From: a virus
Taxonomy: Duplodnaviria; Heunggongvirae; Uroviricota; Caudoviricetes
DNA: 14,040 nt
IMG/VR virus record: IMGVR_UViG_2681813230_000003
Direction: 5' to 3' (one strand)
The notes beneath the pieces are model-generated. The model worked only from the letters and a program-made list of their open reading frames with translations, was not told the origin of the DNA and did not search any database. This document shows positions 1,611-14,040 of this stretch, one piece after another. Positions within the stretch are counted from its first letter, which is position 1, and each line of letters opens with the position of its first letter. The position numbers and the translations under genes were made by a program.

Positions 1611-1931
1611 ATGAAACTGGCGCGTGAGTTCGGTCGCCCGGACTGGCGTGCCATGCTTGCTGGCATGTCCTCAACGGAGTATGGCGACTGGAAAATCTTC
1701 TATCAGGACAATTACTTTCATGATGTGCAGCTGGACGCTCACTTCTCCGGCTTGCTCTACACCATCTCAACCCTGTTTTTTGCCGATCCGGAGTTAACCC
1801 CGGACAGTTTCAGCATTCTTGCTACTGCACCGGAACCCATCGACATTGATGAACCGGATGACAATACGCTGATGGCGAAGGCTGCAGGTATTTCAGGAGG
1901 CGTGCGCTATGGCCCAGACGGCAGTCGGTGA
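1611..1931 (+). CDS. T: Tail assembly protein T portion (lambda gpT-like), expected to be made only as a G-T fusion by -1 frameshifting
   Basis: -1 frame relative to G. The translation KLAREFGRPDWRAMLAGMSSTEYGDW...YFHDV.LD.HFSGL.YT...LFF.DP is highly similar to remembered lambda gpT. Coordinates are from the first in-frame ATG; the true fusion joins near 1582-1584. Confidence 0.8.
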   Translation: MKLAREFGRPDWRAMLAGMSSTEYGDWKIFYQDNYFHDVQLDAHFSGLLYTISTLFFADPELTPDSFSILATAPEPIDIDEPDDNTLMAKAAGISGGVRYGPDGSR

Positions 1932-4425
1932 TCTGGTCGTTAACCTTGACGTTAACTCGTCGAAATTCAGCGAGCAGCTTAACTACGTCAAAAAAGAATT
2001 AAAACAGACCGGCAATGCGGCAAACGACGAAGCGTTACGTATCCAGCAGTCCTTCAGCCGACAGGAGAACGCCGCGCGTAAGGCCGGTATTTCAGTGGGT
2101 CAGTATAACGCCGCAATGCGTATGCTCCCGGCGCAGTTTACCGATGTGGCCACGCAGCTGGCAGGTGGGCAGAACCCCTGGCTGATTCTGCTTCAGCAGG
2201 GTGGTCAGGTTAAGGACTCCTTTGGCGGGATCATCCCGACATTCCGGGCGCTGATTGGGACGGTTTCCCCGTTGATGGTCGGCATTGGTGCATTGTCCGT
2301 TGCAACGGGCGCGTTGTTCTATGCCTGGTACCAGGGCTCTTCCACCCTGTCTGATTTCAACAAAACGCTGGTACTGTCGGGGAACACAGCCGGACTGACC
2401 GCTGACCGCATGCTGGCACTGGCGCGTAACGGACAGACAGCGGGGCTGACCTTCAACCAGACCAGTGAAGCGCTGACCGAACTTATCAACGCGGGTGTGC
2501 GTGCTGGCTCGCGCTTTGATGACATGAGCCAGGCGGTGGCGCGGTTTACCGATGCCTCCGGCGTGCCGGTGGAAAAGGTCGCAGCAGCCTATGGCAAGCT
2601 CGCAACTGACCCGACATCGGGCCTGATCGCGATGGCCCAGCAGTTCCATAACGTTACTGCTGAACAGATTGCCCATGTGGCGCAGCTGCAGCGTGCCGGT
2701 GATGAGGCTGGCGCACTGCAGGCGGCTAACGAGGCTGCTACAGCCGGATTCAACGATCAGACCAAAGCCATCCGCGACAATATGGGGACGATTGAATCTT
2801 CAGCGGACTCCCTGAGGCGCGCCTTCAAGTCGATGTGGGATGCAGCCCTCGATATTGGCCGACCTGACACCGCGCAGGAGATGGTGGCAAAAGCCGAAGC
2901 CGCGTTCAAAAAAGCCGATGAAATCTGGAACCTGCGTAAAGGTGACCGATATGTCAATGATGAGGCCCGCGCCCGATTCTGGAATGATCGCGAAACGGCC
3001 AGGCTGGCGCTGGACATGGCTCAGCAGCAGGCGGGAATTGCCAGGGCGAATGAAGAGAATGCTTCGCGCGAAGCGGCTGCGGAATCGGATCGCCAGAAGT
3101 ATGCTGCGCAGGCTCAGGCAAACTATGCCAAAACGCAGACGGCACTGGAGAAATACACGGCCAGGCAGAGCGAGCTCAACAAGGCGCTGAAAGAGGGGCG
3201 AATCCTCCAGGCTGACTACAACATCAACCTGGCTGCCGCGAAAAAAGAGTACGAAGACACCCTTAAAAAGCCGAAGAAGACCCCGGCAATCAGAACCCCC
3301 GCAGGTGCCCGTGCAACCGATACGGCCAGCGCCCAGACGCTGGAGCTGCAGGCACAGTTGCGCACCCTGCAGGAGCATAAGGGGATAAATGACACCATCA
3401 GTCAGCAGCGTCAGGAGCTGTGGCGTCAACAGTCCCGGTTTACAGTTCTGGAAGAGGCCGCGAAGACCCGGACGCTTTCTGCTGAGGAAAAATCCCTGCT
3501 GGCCAGTAAAAGCGAGGTGCTTTCCCGTGCAGAGCTGAACGCGAAGCTTGGCGATCAGATAGTGGCGCAGGAGCGGCTTAACCGCCTGCAGGATACGTCC
3601 CAAAAATACGTCACGCAGATCGGCGAGAAAACCAGGGCCCTGGCGGAAAGTGCTGGTATGAGCAGTCGTGCAGCACAACGCCGCAACGAGGAGGCCCAGC
3701 TTCTTCAGGGGTGGAAAAATGGTGGCGGTTCGGAGAACGACGCTGGTTATCAGAATGAGTTGCAGGCGCTGCAGGCGTATTACGCCGAGCAGGATAAGCT
3801 GCGGGACGACTGGCAATCCGGGGCCAAATCCGCATGGGCAGATTATGTTGATTCTGCTTCAGATGCTTATGGCCAGATGAAGTCGGCTGCTACCAGTACG
3901 TTTGATGGAATCGGGCAAAATATGGCTGACATGCTGACGCGCGGTAAGGCTGACTGGGCTGACTTCACCCGCTCCACGCTCTCCATGCTGACACAGATCC
4001 TGCTGAAACAGGCGATGGTAGGCTTAGTGGATTCAGCATCAACCGCGCTGGGATTTGCAGGTGGCGGTTATACCGGTTCAGGCGGGAAATATGAGCCAGC
4101 AGGTGTCGTTCACCGTGGTGAGTTTGTTTTCACCAAAGAGGCTACCAGCCGGATCGGCGTCGGCAATCTTTACCGGATGATGAAAGGCTATGCAACGGGA
4201 GGGTATGTCGGGGGCGGTGGTACAGGCCCGGCTGCAGCACCTTTCGGTGTCAGTGTATATGCCCCGGTGACGGTCGAGAATGCTTCCGGTAACGCACAGC
4301 AGCAAAACGACGGAGACAGGCTGGGTAAGGCGTATCAGCAGGTGATTAACAAATCTGTCAACGAGGGTATCGCCAGGGCAATCCAGCCCGGTGGGCTTAT
4401 CTGGAATGCGACCAATCGCAGGTAA
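1909..4425 (+). CDS. H: Tail tape measure protein (lambda gpH-like)
   Basis: 838-aa ORF with long blocks near-identical to remembered lambda gpH (GISVGQY.AAMRMLPAQFTDVATQLAGGQ.PWLILLQQGGQVKDSFGG; GGKYEPAG.VHRGEFVFTKEATSRIGVGNLYR.M.GYATGGYVG). It overlaps the end of T; AGGAGG lies 9 nt upstream. Confidence 0.92.
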   Translation: MAQTAVGDLVVNLDVNSSKFSEQLNYVKKELKQTGNAANDEALRIQQSFSRQENAARKAGISVGQYNAAMRMLPAQFTDVATQLAGGQNPWLILLQQGGQVKDSFGGIIPTFRALIGTVSPLMVGIGALSVATGALFYAWYQGSSTLSDFNKTLVLSGNTAGLTADRMLALARNGQTAGLTFNQTSEALTELINAGVRAGSRFDDMSQAVARFTDASGVPVEKVAAAYGKLATDPTSGLIAMAQQFHNVTAEQIAHVAQLQRAGDEAGALQAANEAATAGFNDQTKAIRDNMGTIESSADSLRRAFKSMWDAALDIGRPDTAQEMVAKAEAAFKKADEIWNLRKGDRYVNDEARARFWNDRETARLALDMAQQQAGIARANEENASREAAAESDRQKYAAQAQANYAKTQTALEKYTARQSELNKALKEGRILQADYNINLAAAKKEYEDTLKKPKKTPAIRTPAGARATDTASAQTLELQAQLRTLQEHKGINDTISQQRQELWRQQSRFTVLEEAAKTRTLSAEEKSLLASKSEVLSRAELNAKLGDQIVAQERLNRLQDTSQKYVTQIGEKTRALAESAGMSSRAAQRRNEEAQLLQGWKNGGGSENDAGYQNELQALQAYYAEQDKLRDDWQSGAKSAWADYVDSASDAYGQMKSAATSTFDGIGQNMADMLTRGKADWADFTRSTLSMLTQILLKQAMVGLVDSASTALGFAGGGYTGSGGKYEPAGVVHRGEFVFTKEATSRIGVGNLYRMMKGYATGGYVGGGGTGPAAAPFGVSVYAPVTVENASGNAQQQNDGDRLGKAYQQVINKSVNEGIARAIQPGGLIWNATNRR

Positions 4426-11460: not shown

Positions 11461-12321
11461 ATGTCTGCAGGAACTATCACCCTGACAAACGGGTCCGCTG
11501 TTGTTGGCGGTGCCGGAACCTCATTCGCAACCGAACTCGCCGGAGGTGATTTCATTGTTTCGGCTGTGGGCGGTGTGCCCTACACGCTGCCGGTGAAAAC
11601 GGTCGACAGTAATACCCAGGTGACGCTGGTCAGCAACTTTACCGGGCCAACGCAATCCGGCGCTGCCTGGTCAGCCATCCCCCGCGTTGCTCTGAACATG
11701 GTCACTGCCGCGCTTGTGGCGCAAAGTGCTGAAGCCCTGCGTGGACTGAATTACGACAAACAGAACTGGCAGCAGGTTTACAGCGCCGCCGGAAACATCA
11801 CAGTGAAGTTGCCAGACGGCACCACCTTCACCGGCCCATCATGGAAATATCTGTCTGACAATATGGCAACCAAGAGCGGTGGGGCCGTACCTGTTAACCA
11901 GGGAGGGACCGGGGCGACAACCAGAGACGCCGCGCTGTCCAATCTGGGTATCACCTATGTCAGGTCAGGAACAAACTCCAGCGTGATAAAAATTGACGAT
12001 ATTTATCAAATGGATTTCCTCATAGGTGGCGGCATCGCAGTAGGAGCATACAACCCTCAGACAGTGGGAGGTATTACGTATTACACGCACTACTATAAAG
12101 TGCCGCTCCCCGTCGCATTACCTAACGGCATTATTATTGCCGTTGCGTCCATTTCAGGCGACAGATTTGGAAATCAAAACCCCGGATACAATGCAGACGT
12201 AAAAACATGCAGAGATAAAGATGATGGCACCGGGCTATCAACAACATATCTAACCGTCAGCGTTAAAACAGCTCAGACAGGCTGGGTCCCGTATTTTCAT
12301 GTAAGAGTGGTAGGGTATTGA
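11461..12321 (+). CDS. stf: Side tail fibre protein (Stf-like) with mosaic C-terminal receptor-binding region
   Basis: 286-aa ORF with AAGGAG 5 nt upstream. It contains a ...NQGGTGATTRDAALSNLGI motif of the kind I recall as conserved in phage tail fibres, and is followed directly by a Tfa-family chaperone gene. GC content drops sharply after about 12000. Confidence 0.65.
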   Translation: MSAGTITLTNGSAVVGGAGTSFATELAGGDFIVSAVGGVPYTLPVKTVDSNTQVTLVSNFTGPTQSGAAWSAIPRVALNMVTAALVAQSAEALRGLNYDKQNWQQVYSAAGNITVKLPDGTTFTGPSWKYLSDNMATKSGGAVPVNQGGTGATTRDAALSNLGITYVRSGTNSSVIKIDDIYQMDFLIGGGIAVGAYNPQTVGGITYYTHYYKVPLPVALPNGIIIAVASISGDRFGNQNPGYNADVKTCRDKDDGTGLSTTYLTVSVKTAQTGWVPYFHVRVVGY

Positions 12322-12322
12322 T

Positions 12323-12736
12323 ATGAAATATTTTTACAGCATCAGCACGCAGGGATTTTACCTCGATAACGGTATGCTGTCTGCGTATGAAGCGGCTGGC
12401 TCACTACCTGCGGACTTGCAAGAGATGAGCGAGGCTGACTATCTGGCGTTTTTTAATCCTCCCGATGGATTCGCGGGCATATTTGACGAGAAAGGACCGC
12501 GTATTGAACAACTGCCAGAACTGGACCCGCTGGCGATAGCAGAAAATCAACGGCGGCTGTTGCTGTCAGAAATCGCTCCGACTATTTCTGTATGGCAGAC
12601 AAAAATCCTGGTGGGCATGAAACTGAGTGATTCAGAAACCGCAGCCCTGCATGCCTGGTTGAGCTACAGTGATGCGCTGAACGCGCTGGATATCACCGTG
12701 CCAGATATTCAGTGGCCTGAAAAACCCGCAGCGTGA
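12323..12736 (+). CDS. tfa: Tail fibre assembly chaperone (Tfa family; lambda Tfa / Mu U-like)
   Basis: 137-aa ORF starting 2 nt after the stf stop. The C-terminus (LHAWLSYSDALNALDITVPDIQWPEKP) matches the conserved Tfa C-terminal signature (...W..Y...L..VD.S.APDIEWP..P in lambda Tfa). Confidence 0.8.
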   Translation: MKYFYSISTQGFYLDNGMLSAYEAAGSLPADLQEMSEADYLAFFNPPDGFAGIFDEKGPRIEQLPELDPLAIAENQRRLLLSEIAPTISVWQTKILVGMKLSDSETAALHAWLSYSDALNALDITVPDIQWPEKPAA

Positions 12737-12750
12737 TGTGATTTTCATTA

Positions 12751-12778
12751 ACCGGGCAGAAAAGGATGACTGCCCGGT
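12751..12778. terminator. Possible bidirectional terminator hairpin between convergent tfa and dinI-like genes
   Basis: ACCGGGCAG / CTGCCCGGT is a perfect 9-bp inverted repeat with a 10-nt loop, lying between the two convergent stop codons. No clean T-run follows on either strand. Confidence 0.3.
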
Positions 12779-12793
12779 GATGTGAATATGTAA

Positions 12794-13033
12794 TTAATCA
12801 GCAACCAGCCACATGTCAGATTCTTCAAACATCTCTTCAAGCATACGATTAAGCCGTTCTTTCTCTGTTTTCGTGCAGTTGCTGTTTAGCGCGTTCGCCT
12901 GCATCGGCTTTACCTTCACTTCGGCACCAGGGAAAATCTGGTGCACCCGCTTCGTCAGTTCGGCCAGAATGATCTCCCTGGCCCCTTCGAGCCCCTCAAC
13001 ATTTCGCTTGTCATAAACCAGTTCAACAAACAT
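12794..13033 (-). CDS. dinI: DinI-family protein (DNA-damage-inducible protein I-like)
   Basis: 79-aa product MFVELVYDKRNVEGLEGAREIILAELTKRVHQIFPG...EKERLNRMLEEMFEESDMWLVAD aligns over its full length with remembered E. coli DinI (81 aa; ...LSRRIQYAFPD...KEDKQRISEILQETWESADDWFVSE). SD AAGAGGA lies upstream. The longer ORF-track ORF (to 13420) is an antisense run-on. Confidence 0.85.
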   Translation of the reverse strand: MFVELVYDKRNVEGLEGAREIILAELTKRVHQIFPGAEVKVKPMQANALNSNCTKTEKERLNRMLEEMFEESDMWLVAD

Positions 13034-13082
13034 ACCGATCCTCTTATAAGTGAAAACTGCCTGTGCTTGATCTGTTTTCATA

Positions 13083-13111
13083 AAAATACTACTGTATATA
13101 CATACAGTCAA
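13083..13111 (-). promoter_or_regulatory. Sigma70-type promoter for the dinI-like gene (-35 TTGACT, 17-bp spacer, -10 TATTTT on the minus strand)
   Basis: The minus strand reads TTGACT (13111-13106), a 17-nt spacer, then TATTTT (13088-13083). The LexA box lies within the spacer and overlaps the -35, the classic SOS-promoter geometry. Confidence 0.55.
13092..13107. promoter_or_regulatory. LexA operator (SOS box)
   Basis: CTGTATATACATACAG differs at one position from the CTGT-(AT)4-ACAG consensus and has flanking TA...TCA. It sits in the 99-bp divergent region between the dinI-like gene and orf99. Confidence 0.8.
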
Positions 13112-13132
13112 TGAGCGAGTGAGGGTGCATTT

Positions 13133-13432
13133 ATGCCTCGTCAACCGGATATTCGTGCTGCTTTTATTGCGGCCATACAGCAAAACCCGAAGGGCTATCT
13201 CTGTCTGCATACAGACAAGTTCATCGCTGAACTGCAGGAGAGGAACTGGCATTTCAGTCAGGCGGATGCAAATACATGGATCGAGCGATACCAGCCGGAC
13301 TTCGCCGATAAGACGACAAACGAAAGCGAGAACCGGTACTGGATCCTGCGTAACATGGGGAGGGTTCTGAGGAGTTATCTTGCGATGCGCTATAGGTTTG
13401 CCCCATCCCTCCCAAACCAACCTTTTTTATAA
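13133..13432 (+). CDS. Hypothetical protein (99 aa), divergent from the dinI-like gene; possibly SOS-regulated
   Basis: ORF with SD GAGGG 8 nt upstream of the ATG and a start about 25 bp downstream of the LexA box. Composition looks protein-like; the C-terminus is basic/aromatic (YWILRNMGRVLRSYLAMRYRF). No homologue recognised from memory. Confidence 0.5.
   Translation: MPRQPDIRAAFIAAIQQNPKGYLCLHTDKFIAELQERNWHFSQADANTWIERYQPDFADKTTNESENRYWILRNMGRVLRSYLAMRYRFAPSLPNQPFL
13407..13432. other. Candidate hix/gix-like recombination (crossover) site upstream of the invertase gene
   Basis: CCCTCCCAAACCAACCTTTTTTATAA matches hixL (TTCTTGAAAACCAAGGTTTTTGATAA, from memory) at 16/26 positions, including the AAACC core, the central AA, the T-run and the terminal ATAA. 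It lies 60 bp upstream of the invertase start. The left half-site is poor and no partner was found in the window. Confidence 0.3.
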
Positions 13433-13460
13433 CCATCAAAAATCTGGTGATGCTTCGCCG

Positions 13461-13487
13461 TTTCTCCTGTTTTCATAACAGGAGAAA
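13461..13487 (+). promoter_or_regulatory. Perfect 11-bp inverted repeat (stem-loop) that includes the invertase Shine-Dalgarno
   Basis: TTTCTCCTGTT (13461-13471), loop TTCAT, AACAGGAGAAA (13477-13487). The right arm contains AGGAG (13480-13484), 7 nt upstream of the invertase ATG at 13492. Confidence 0.45.
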
Positions 13488-13491
13488 TCCC

Positions 13492-14040
13492 ATGATTTAC
13501 GGTTATGCCCGAGTATCAACAAACCACCAGGACACTGAATTGCAACTAACGGCGCTCAAGTCAGCGGGTTGTGAGAAAATTTTTGAAGAGCATGCCAGCG
13601 GGAGGAAATCGAATCGGCCGGTTCTAAAACGGCTGATCGCCACTATGCAGCCGGGGGATGAACTGGTGGTCTGGAAGCTGGACAGGATAGGCCGCAACGT
13701 TCTGCATGCGCTGTTGATGTTCCAGCAGTTACAGGAAAAGGGTATCAACTTCCGCAGTATTACCGATGGCGTGGATCTCAAAACAGCCAGCGGCCGCTAT
13801 AACTTTCGTAACATCCTTTCCGCAGCACAATATGAATCTGATCTTAATAGCGAACGTACCTTAGCAGGGCTGGCCGTAGCCAGGGCAAAAGGGCGAGTTG
13901 GTGGTCGCAGGCCTAAGTTCACGGATGAGCAATGGCGGGAAATGGGGGAGCGGATGGCAACCGGTGAATCACGACAAAGCGTATCAAAAACGTATGGAGT
14001 AGGGCTCTCAACTCTGTATAAAAAGTTTCCAGCTAGCTGA
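13492..14040 (+). CDS. Serine-recombinase DNA invertase (Hin/Gin/Pin/Cin family)
   Basis: 182-aa product MIYGYARVSTNHQDTELQ...GDELVVWKLDRIGRN...GINFRSITD...ERTLAGLAVARAKGRVGGRRPK...GVGLSTLYKKFPAS is highly similar across its whole length to remembered Gin/Hin, including the catalytic Ser in the RVST motif and the C-terminal HTH. Start chosen at the ATG with an AGGAG SD; the ORF-track start at 13447 lacks one. The stop is the last codon of the window. Confidence 0.92.
   Translation: MIYGYARVSTNHQDTELQLTALKSAGCEKIFEEHASGRKSNRPVLKRLIATMQPGDELVVWKLDRIGRNVLHALLMFQQLQEKGINFRSITDGVDLKTASGRYNFRNILSAAQYESDLNSERTLAGLAVARAKGRVGGRRPKFTDEQWREMGERMATGESRQSVSKTYGVGLSTLYKKFPAS

Follow-up and report, generated by a model that had tools for sequence, protein, structure and literature searches.

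A predicted SOS-regulated module of phage HK225 in which orf99 is probably the first gene of a phage UmuD' operon left without its partner

We analyzed a stretch of 14,040 nucleotides of Caudoviricetes DNA (IMG/VR record IMGVR_UViG_2681813230_000003), referred to here as the window, and in particular a LexA box shared by a dinI-like gene and orf99, a divergent open reading frame (ORF) of 99 codons. Positions 12700-13500 of the window match Enterobacteria phage HK225 (NC_019717/JQ086371) at 100% identity, and the same is true of prophages in two E. coli chromosomes. In the GenBank record of HK225 the genes run in the order tail protein, Cor, tail fibre gp25, tail-fibre assembly gp26, DinI gp27 on the minus strand, gp28, DNA invertase gp29, attP and integrase, which places the SOS genes between the tail-fibre genes and the attachment site (att); orf99 is gp28, labelled hypothetical. 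The reading that we favor, and consider probable as a whole, is that these genes form a compact SOS-regulated accessory module (a "moron") at the tail-fibre/att end of the lambdoid phage HK225, and that orf99 is the first gene of a UmuD' operon which has been left without its partner. Judged by its sequence, HK225 would be a truncated member of a widespread phage UmuD' operon variant, joined to a DinI-like gene, and not an induction switch of the Gifsy type.

The LexA box, orf99 and the dinI-like gene are a real feature and almost certainly SOS-regulated. The preliminary description of this DNA had reported a near-consensus LexA box, which was confirmed one base away from where that description implied. 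Its 20-mer agrees with the consensus TACTGTATATATATACAGTA at 18 of 20 positions and, with these 2 mismatches, is the sole match in the window with 3 mismatches or fewer; 200 shuffles gave no such match. Its spacer is AT-rich, and it has the form of the Enterobacteria LexA palindrome. The core pattern CTGT-N8-ACAG occurs twice in the 14 kb against 0.14 occurrences expected, and the second occurrence (CTGTCGGGGAACACAG, 2374-2389) is most likely due to chance, since its spacer is GC-rich and it lies inside an 838-amino-acid (aa) ORF (1909-4425). A promoter scan recovered the minus-strand promoter TTGACT-17-TATTTT described earlier, with the LexA box inside its spacer, and its hexamers are conserved among dinI-linked loci. 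For orf99, whose ATG follows 25 nt after the box as had been estimated, we read a candidate promoter from the sequence that scores 7/12 and falls under the threshold of the scan. The −10 of this candidate is the left arm of the LexA box, which covers the −10/+1 region; the combination of TTGATC, a spacer of about 17 nt and TACTGT is repeated upstream of orf99 homologs whose flanks are otherwise unrelated, and in the annotated SOS promoter p95 of phage 186 the TACTGT that forms the left arm of the LexA site is likewise marked as the −10. The divergent promoters of HK225 interdigitate, the −10 of each sitting in the spacer of the other, and therefore one operator covers both, so that a single LexA dimer should block the two of them.

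We compared the neighborhoods of 107 distinct homologous loci with upstream data and 105 with downstream data. A LexA box (CTG-N10-CAG) was present 29-42 bp before the ATG of the orf99 homolog in 99 of the 107, including relatives at 35-55% identity in other genera. A divergent dinI gene was found in 73 loci, and in 26 others the box occurs with no dinI nearby and with upstream DNA that is otherwise unrelated. Because the box is kept in these 26 loci, the operator appears to belong to the orf at least as much as to dinI, and the shared SOS control of both genes proposed in the preliminary description is supported at the sequence level. In one locus, L114, the box is degenerate. In four viral contigs (L042, L074, L083, and L090) an ISL3-like insertion sequence (IS) with a 406-aa transposase, an insertion of about 1.4 kb, lies inside the LexA box, in both orientations, which points to the AT-rich palindrome as a hot spot for insertion and to occasional uncoupling of the module from LexA.

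Downstream, the orf overlaps the next gene in at least 91 of the 105 loci, the final base of its stop codon serving as the A of the following ATG; this next gene is UmuD'-like, and its product begins with MGFPSPAxDYVEQR. The partner comes in two types. The commonest is a short form of 105-107 aa (PHROG 3469, "UmuD-like") with no Pfam match, and the other a long form of 123-129 aa that matches Pfam Peptidase_S24 and PHROG 811. The profile of the short form matches UmuD in the RecA-UmuD complex (8gmt_B, 4e-9) and UmuD' (1umu_A, 1e-8), the alignment beginning exactly at Gly25, the residue with which UmuD' starts once RecA-mediated cleavage has occurred; the GDSM stretch with the catalytic Ser is deleted. 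Both types pair with nearly identical orf proteins, and the conserved N-terminal arm is the sole part that they have in common. The module invariably lies between tail-fibre genes and the integrase/attachment site, in prophages of the siphovirus type and of the myovirus type. UmuD'-like genes also occur without the orf, with a LexA box of their own at −26 to −39, in HK639, CobraSix, BUCT554, and Kp4871-1; the short gene stands alone in HK639 (L130 1192-1590), and in Enterobacter phage CobraSix (L128 1201-2703) it is followed directly by a UmuC-like polymerase gene. From these arrangements, phages seem to carry at least three layouts of the UmuD' SOS module. Most orf loci have no umuC downstream, and the orf is nearly always accompanied by a UmuD'-like gene or a remnant of one. 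The simplest reading of these gene orders has the orf joining a LexA-controlled phage UmuD' gene as an accessory first cistron. Among 189 partner clusters there was no genuine orf-UmuD' fusion that could serve as Rosetta-stone evidence. Two single polypeptides, P0136 (178 aa) and P0227 (148 aa), do join the orf to a UmuD'-like protein; their linker reads as a frameshifted C-terminus of the orf, and they are probably sequencing errors or pseudogenes, not true fusions.

This arrangement recalls umuDC-type operons and humD of P1, the latter described in a passage of PMC11541004 that cites McLenigan et al. (1999) as a pre-processed homolog of UmuD'. The relatives of HK225 share with these systems a LexA box over the promoter, carriage by temperate phages, and a UmuD'-type product that starts at the post-cleavage Gly. 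They differ in having a 79-aa first cistron predicted to be winged-helix-like, mostly no umuC, and a commonest partner without the catalytic Ser stretch. HK225 itself differs further, as its window contains no UmuD'-like gene at all; a HumD-type operon is found in the relatives and not in HK225.

The preliminary description had left orf99 without a recognizable family, which proved wrong. Residues 1-79 match positions 1-79 of the profile of PHROG 3893 (function unknown), that is, its full length, with an E-value of 2.4e-42, and the 20 C-terminal residues of orf99 fall outside the match. A search through 5.8 billion proteins yielded 147 clusters from Enterobacter, Escherichia, Salmonella, Citrobacter, and their relatives, almost all of them exactly 79 aa long; they are labelled "hypothetical" or "DNA polymerase V," the latter apparently taken from the adjacent gene. 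A profile search of 1.8 billion representatives returned 161 small proteins, which extended the family only by more distant members and gave no tie to any named family. With tblastn, 47 phage records proved to carry the family, among them, at 35-55% identity, phages of Klebsiella, Erwinia, Cronobacter, and Pantoea. Diversity among 90 distinct coding sequences lies predominantly at third positions, and the median ratio of nonsynonymous to synonymous substitution rates (dN/dS) is 0.087, so by these measures the family is a real protein-coding gene under strong purifying selection.

Searches of Pfam, NCBIfam, and PADLOC returned nothing above the cut-off for orf99 (matches to WVELL, NOT2, and DUF7669 were sub-threshold). 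This bears on the earlier suggestion of an SOS-induced anti-defence or lysogenic-conversion factor, taken here as an effector with no relation to UmuD'. Its moron position beside Cor and the tail-fibre genes and its lack of an assigned function would suit such a role, but none of the three collections gave a match, and the near-obligate coupling to a UmuD'-like gene points to SOS and translesion biology, so that we find the effector hardly credible.

The predicted structure raises another alternative, namely that orf99 is a winged-helix DNA-binding regulator that switches phage or host promoters, or its own operon, during the SOS response. The AlphaFold model shows a small winged-helix-like domain with the topology H1-b1-H2-H3-b2-wing-b3, and its best structural neighbors are the DNA-binding proteins PefI, Sso10a, PadR, and Fur. 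These scores are low and generic, however: Foldseek against the PDB and BFVD returned, apart from the entry of orf99 itself, nothing but generic winged-helix matches (E > 0.01), sequences in the PDB gave nothing meaningful in a profile search, and an hhalign comparison of the orf profile with E. coli LexA detected no similarity. The protein has a net charge of about zero (10 K/R and 10 D/E by count), and its putative recognition helix, QADANTWIERY, is acidic. A motif, ATTGATAGG, lies about 20 bp upstream of the TTGATC −35 in dinI-less loci (L011, L018, L023, L114, L116, L123, L125, and L126), where it gives a direct repeat of TTGAT and could be a second promoter or the site of a regulator, which would fit this alternative; yet it is not present in HK225. 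A DNA-binding regulator would also leave the strict translational coupling to the UmuD'-like gene unexplained, and we hold it to be quite unlikely.

The preliminary description had also proposed that orf99, as in the Gifsy prophages, might be an antirepressor under LexA control, one that sets off induction by inactivating the prophage repressor. Gifsy GfoA/GftA, 186 Tum, and N15 AntC are antirepressors of this kind. There are reasons for such a proposal: orf99 is small and lies under a LexA box beside a dinI homolog, Tum and the Gifsy antirepressors are also linked to dinI sequences (PMC3121763), and the p95-like promoter design, with TACTGT as the −10, is common to orf99 and 186 tum. In the Gifsy prophages, however, whose repressors are not cleaved, one strand of the early region carries the LexA box followed by dinI, the antirepressor, and irsA (PMC3121763), whereas the HK225 genes are divergent, not operonic, and lie at the end of the late region. 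The HK225 repressor gp46 combines a helix-turn-helix with Peptidase_S24 (1e-15) and should be of the self-cleaving, λ CI-like type, which needs no antirepressor. No similarity of orf99 to GftA or Tum emerged, as hhalign gave probabilities of 0.1% against Gifsy-2 GftA and 0.06% against 186 Tum, and the family was not found by tblastn in Gifsy-2 or 186. Moreover, the constant neighbor is a UmuD'-like gene and not an immunity gene, at the tail-fibre/att position of siphoviruses and myoviruses alike. We conclude that an antirepressor is very improbable here.

How orf99 lost its partner can be followed at the junction with the invertase gene. Homology to HK140, Flotzy, SZQ1, and other relatives stops at 13366-13379, where HK225 reads GTT--CTGA-GGAGTTA in alignment with GTTTTCTGATGGGGTTA in the relatives; the ancestral TGA at 13368-13370 has been shifted out of frame, and of the partner gene only some 13 nt at its start may survive. 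Beginning at 13397, HK225 agrees at 97-100% identity with E. coli SZQ1 and Citrobacter phage Omnitron, in which this DNA immediately precedes the same invertase. Positions 13367-13425 are common to the Klebsiella P2-like phage Kp4865-2 and the metagenome contig L114, which carry a different invertase, and the L114 ORF (P0119, 97 aa) has a tail identical to that of orf99 on a body only about 62% identical at the protein level. In a five-way alignment CTCCCAAACCAAC is present in all five phages and the left and right flanks assort independently around it, which is why we regard 13407-13432 as a site-specific crossover site. In SZQ1 the invertase precedes dinI, orf, and umuD'; in HK225 it occupies the place of umuD'. 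It would follow that the UmuD'-like gene was lost in HK225, that a small frameshift removed the original stop, and that the ORF now reads 21 codons into an orphan crossover site. As orf99 reads through the decayed junction into the crossover site after codon 78, the 21 extra residues, which have low model confidence (predicted local distance difference test, pLDDT, 47-65), are on this alignment a product of junction DNA.

These same observations make it conceivable that orf99 of HK225 is a non-functional leftover of a rearranged operon, its promoter-proximal gene remaining by chance. The partner gene is gone, the stop is frameshifted, and the tail is of low confidence; at least 80% of the region is covered in 4 of 5426 complete E. 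coli genomes, so the exact HK225 arrangement is rare; and the module decays in other relatives too, as truncated UmuD' remnants, orfs of 50-67 aa, and IS insertions in the operator. Against this, the promoter, operator, Shine-Dalgarno sequence, and 78 core codons have all stayed intact, the same tail on the intact, 62%-identical body of P0119 indicates that the fused form persists in another lineage, and host UmuD/UmuD' could replace the lost partner. On balance we regard a leftover as unlikely, while giving it real weight. Under the favored reading, orf99 of HK225 would be SOS-controlled, to judge from its operator, and have no phage-encoded partner, acting on host UmuD/UmuD' or persisting as a relic. 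The coordinates of the features are collected in Table 1.

Table 1. Features of the dinI-orf99-invertase region (window coordinates).
Feature	Position	Strand	Remarks
Terminator-like hairpin (CCGGGCAG/CTGCCCGG)	12752..12777	-	3' of the dinI-like stop, in the gap common with the convergent tail-fibre-assembly gene
dinI-like gene	12794..13033	-	79 aa plus stop; Shine-Dalgarno AAGAGGA 13039-13045
P(orf99), candidate	13067..13095	+	-35 TTGATC 13067-13072, 17-nt spacer, -10 TACTGT 13090-13095; read from sequence
P(dinI)	13083..13111	-	-35 TTGACT 13111-13106, 17-nt spacer, -10 TATTTT 13088-13083; promoter scan 9/12
LexA operator TACTGTATATACATACAGTC	13090..13109	.	Core CTGT-N8-ACAG 13092-13107, core sequence CTGTATATACATACAG
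orf99	13133..13432	+	99 aa; stop TAA 13430-13432
orf99 codons 1-78	13133..13366	+	Conserved core of the 79-aa family; Shine-Dalgarno GAGGG 13121-13125, 7 nt before ATG
orf99 codons 79-91, junction DNA	13367..13406	+	13367-13379 like a decayed orf-stop/umuD'-start overlap; rest is the inner flank of the invertase site
DNA-invertase crossover site CCCTCCCAAACCAACCTTTTTTATAA	13407..13432	.	Contains orf99 stop TAA 13430-13432
12-bp perfect hairpin	13460..13488	+	3' arm holds invertase Shine-Dalgarno AGGAG 13480-13484; fold -23.1 kcal/mol, z = -5.9
Serine DNA invertase	13492..14040	+	182 aa; Pfam Resolvase 3.6e-39 plus HTH_7; PHROG 125 DNA invertase 6.5e-75

The crossover site resembles those of Mu Gin/gix, P1 Cin/cix, and e14 Pin, in that a 26-bp site precedes the invertase and, in the relatives, a partner site lies in a tail-fibre gene at an LGLG motif. 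In Kp4865-2 and Omnitron the inverted partner half-site is within the tail-fibre gene, 1.6-1.9 kb upstream, with the LGLG motif in Kp4865-2. No inverted partner site was found in the 36.7 kb of HK225 that were examined (the window, L001, and L115, covering the genome after its first 8.6 kb), and in contrast to the invertible segments of Mu, P1, and e14, HK225 seems to have a single orphan site with an unrelated SOS gene joined to its inner flank. The crossover site was also seen at L111 1011-1023 and L112 634-646. Read on the minus strand, 13367-13420 gives VGLGGMGQTYSASQDNSS, which resembles the beginning of an alternative C-terminal tail-fibre segment that has been lost, and in Kp4865-2 (L111 2094-2605) an IS1 InsB-like fragment truncates an orf homolog in the invertible segment, leaving its last 43 or so codons and the shared tail. 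The hairpin before the invertase gene is conserved along with the cassette in SZQ1 and Omnitron, and it may hold translation of the invertase at a low level. There is no strong terminator between the presumably LexA-controlled orf99 promoter and the invertase gene, and for this reason transcription of the invertase could be influenced by the SOS response.

The assignment of the divergent gene as dinI-like held up. Its product matches Pfam PF06183 DinI with 78.4 bits against a cut-off of 24.2 (E-value 5e-22) and PHROG 189. Since it scores 37.9 bits with the NCBIfam DinI equivalog NF007893, below the cut-off of 111, it does not qualify as an ortholog of chromosomal DinI, and on these profile scores it is a DinI-family paralog of the MsgA/prophage type. 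GenBank starts gp27 at an upstream ATG at 13081 (13079-13081, minus strand), beside the −10 of its own predicted promoter; this codon is not conserved, CAT being changed to TAT in many relatives, and the conserved start with a Shine-Dalgarno sequence is, by this comparison, that at 13033, which gives 79 aa and not 95. An in-frame extension of the gene, a 208-aa minus-strand ORF (12794-13420) antisense to orf99, was discarded as an artefact of an open antisense frame: its start lies beyond the dinI promoter, and neither a homolog nor a promoter supports it. Beyond the dinI-like stop, the minus strand of 12735-12800 folds with −19.2 kcal/mol (z = −4.8), and transcription presumably terminates at the hairpin there, the U tract of which is weak. 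Klebsiella DinR, a small RNA from the 3' untranslated region of dinI, was rejected as a parallel, as it belongs to chromosomal dinI and needs a Klebsiella-specific stretch. Rfam and tRNA scans over 12000-14040 gave no matches.

Taken with established SOS biology, the favored reading leads to the following model. In the lysogen, LexA would repress both promoters, independently of CI. Upon DNA damage, LexA cleavage would release the leftward promoter, which yields a DinI-like modulator of the RecA filament, and the rightward promoter, which yields orf99; the near-consensus box implies tight binding, and thus induction would probably come late or only after heavy damage. In the relatives, the 79-aa protein would be the translationally coupled first cistron and a pre-cleaved UmuD' homolog the second. 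Gene linkage suggests for orf99 the role of an accessory or partner to UmuD'-type proteins of phages, modulating RecA*/Pol V chemistry at a late stage of the SOS response. We judge this role about evenly balanced between true and false, and the protein would most likely act through protein-protein contact rather than by binding DNA. As the N-terminal arm is all that the two partner types share, we propose it as the part of UmuD'-type proteins that the 79-aa protein may contact. Small partners of SOS proteins with the S24 fold have precedents: DdrR of Acinetobacter binds UmuDAb, and gp7 of phage GIL01 binds LexA (PMC11332147). As in those cases, a small protein is encoded beside a UmuD-family gene and predicted to be co-induced by DNA damage, and protein binding is what we propose for orf99. 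DdrR, unlike the 79-aa protein, is divergently transcribed and genus-specific, and the likeness is by analogy only, with no homology claimed.

A bolder version of the model, which we hold to be very doubtful, is that the 79-aa protein and the catalytically dead UmuD'-like protein are a two-piece analog of LexA/UmuDAb, split exactly at the cleavage site. The winged-helix part would be supplied by the small protein, which would dock on the GFPSPAxDYVEQR arm of an S24-fold dimer. If this were true, the pair would be a new SOS-timed regulator or a Pol V switch, and in HK225 the target of the orphan orf99 would be host UmuD/UmuD' or LexA, in the way that gp7 of GIL01 acts on LexA.

LexA-controlled homologs of DinI and UmuD' on temperate phages are already known. 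A literature search found no publication on the 79-aa family, and a conserved, tightly coupled partner gene for phage UmuD' homologs appears to be new, as far as the literature searched shows. For annotation, the present reading would explain the 99-aa ORF as a junction product, correct the start of the DinI-like gene, and identify an orphan invertase site. HK225, as a natural variant without the partner, may serve as a control. More broadly, phage UmuD' operons of this kind in Enterobacteriaceae nearly always start with the gene for a 79-aa protein that had gone unnoticed, which makes it a candidate modulator of UmuD'/Pol V or RecA* for work on SOS mutagenesis.

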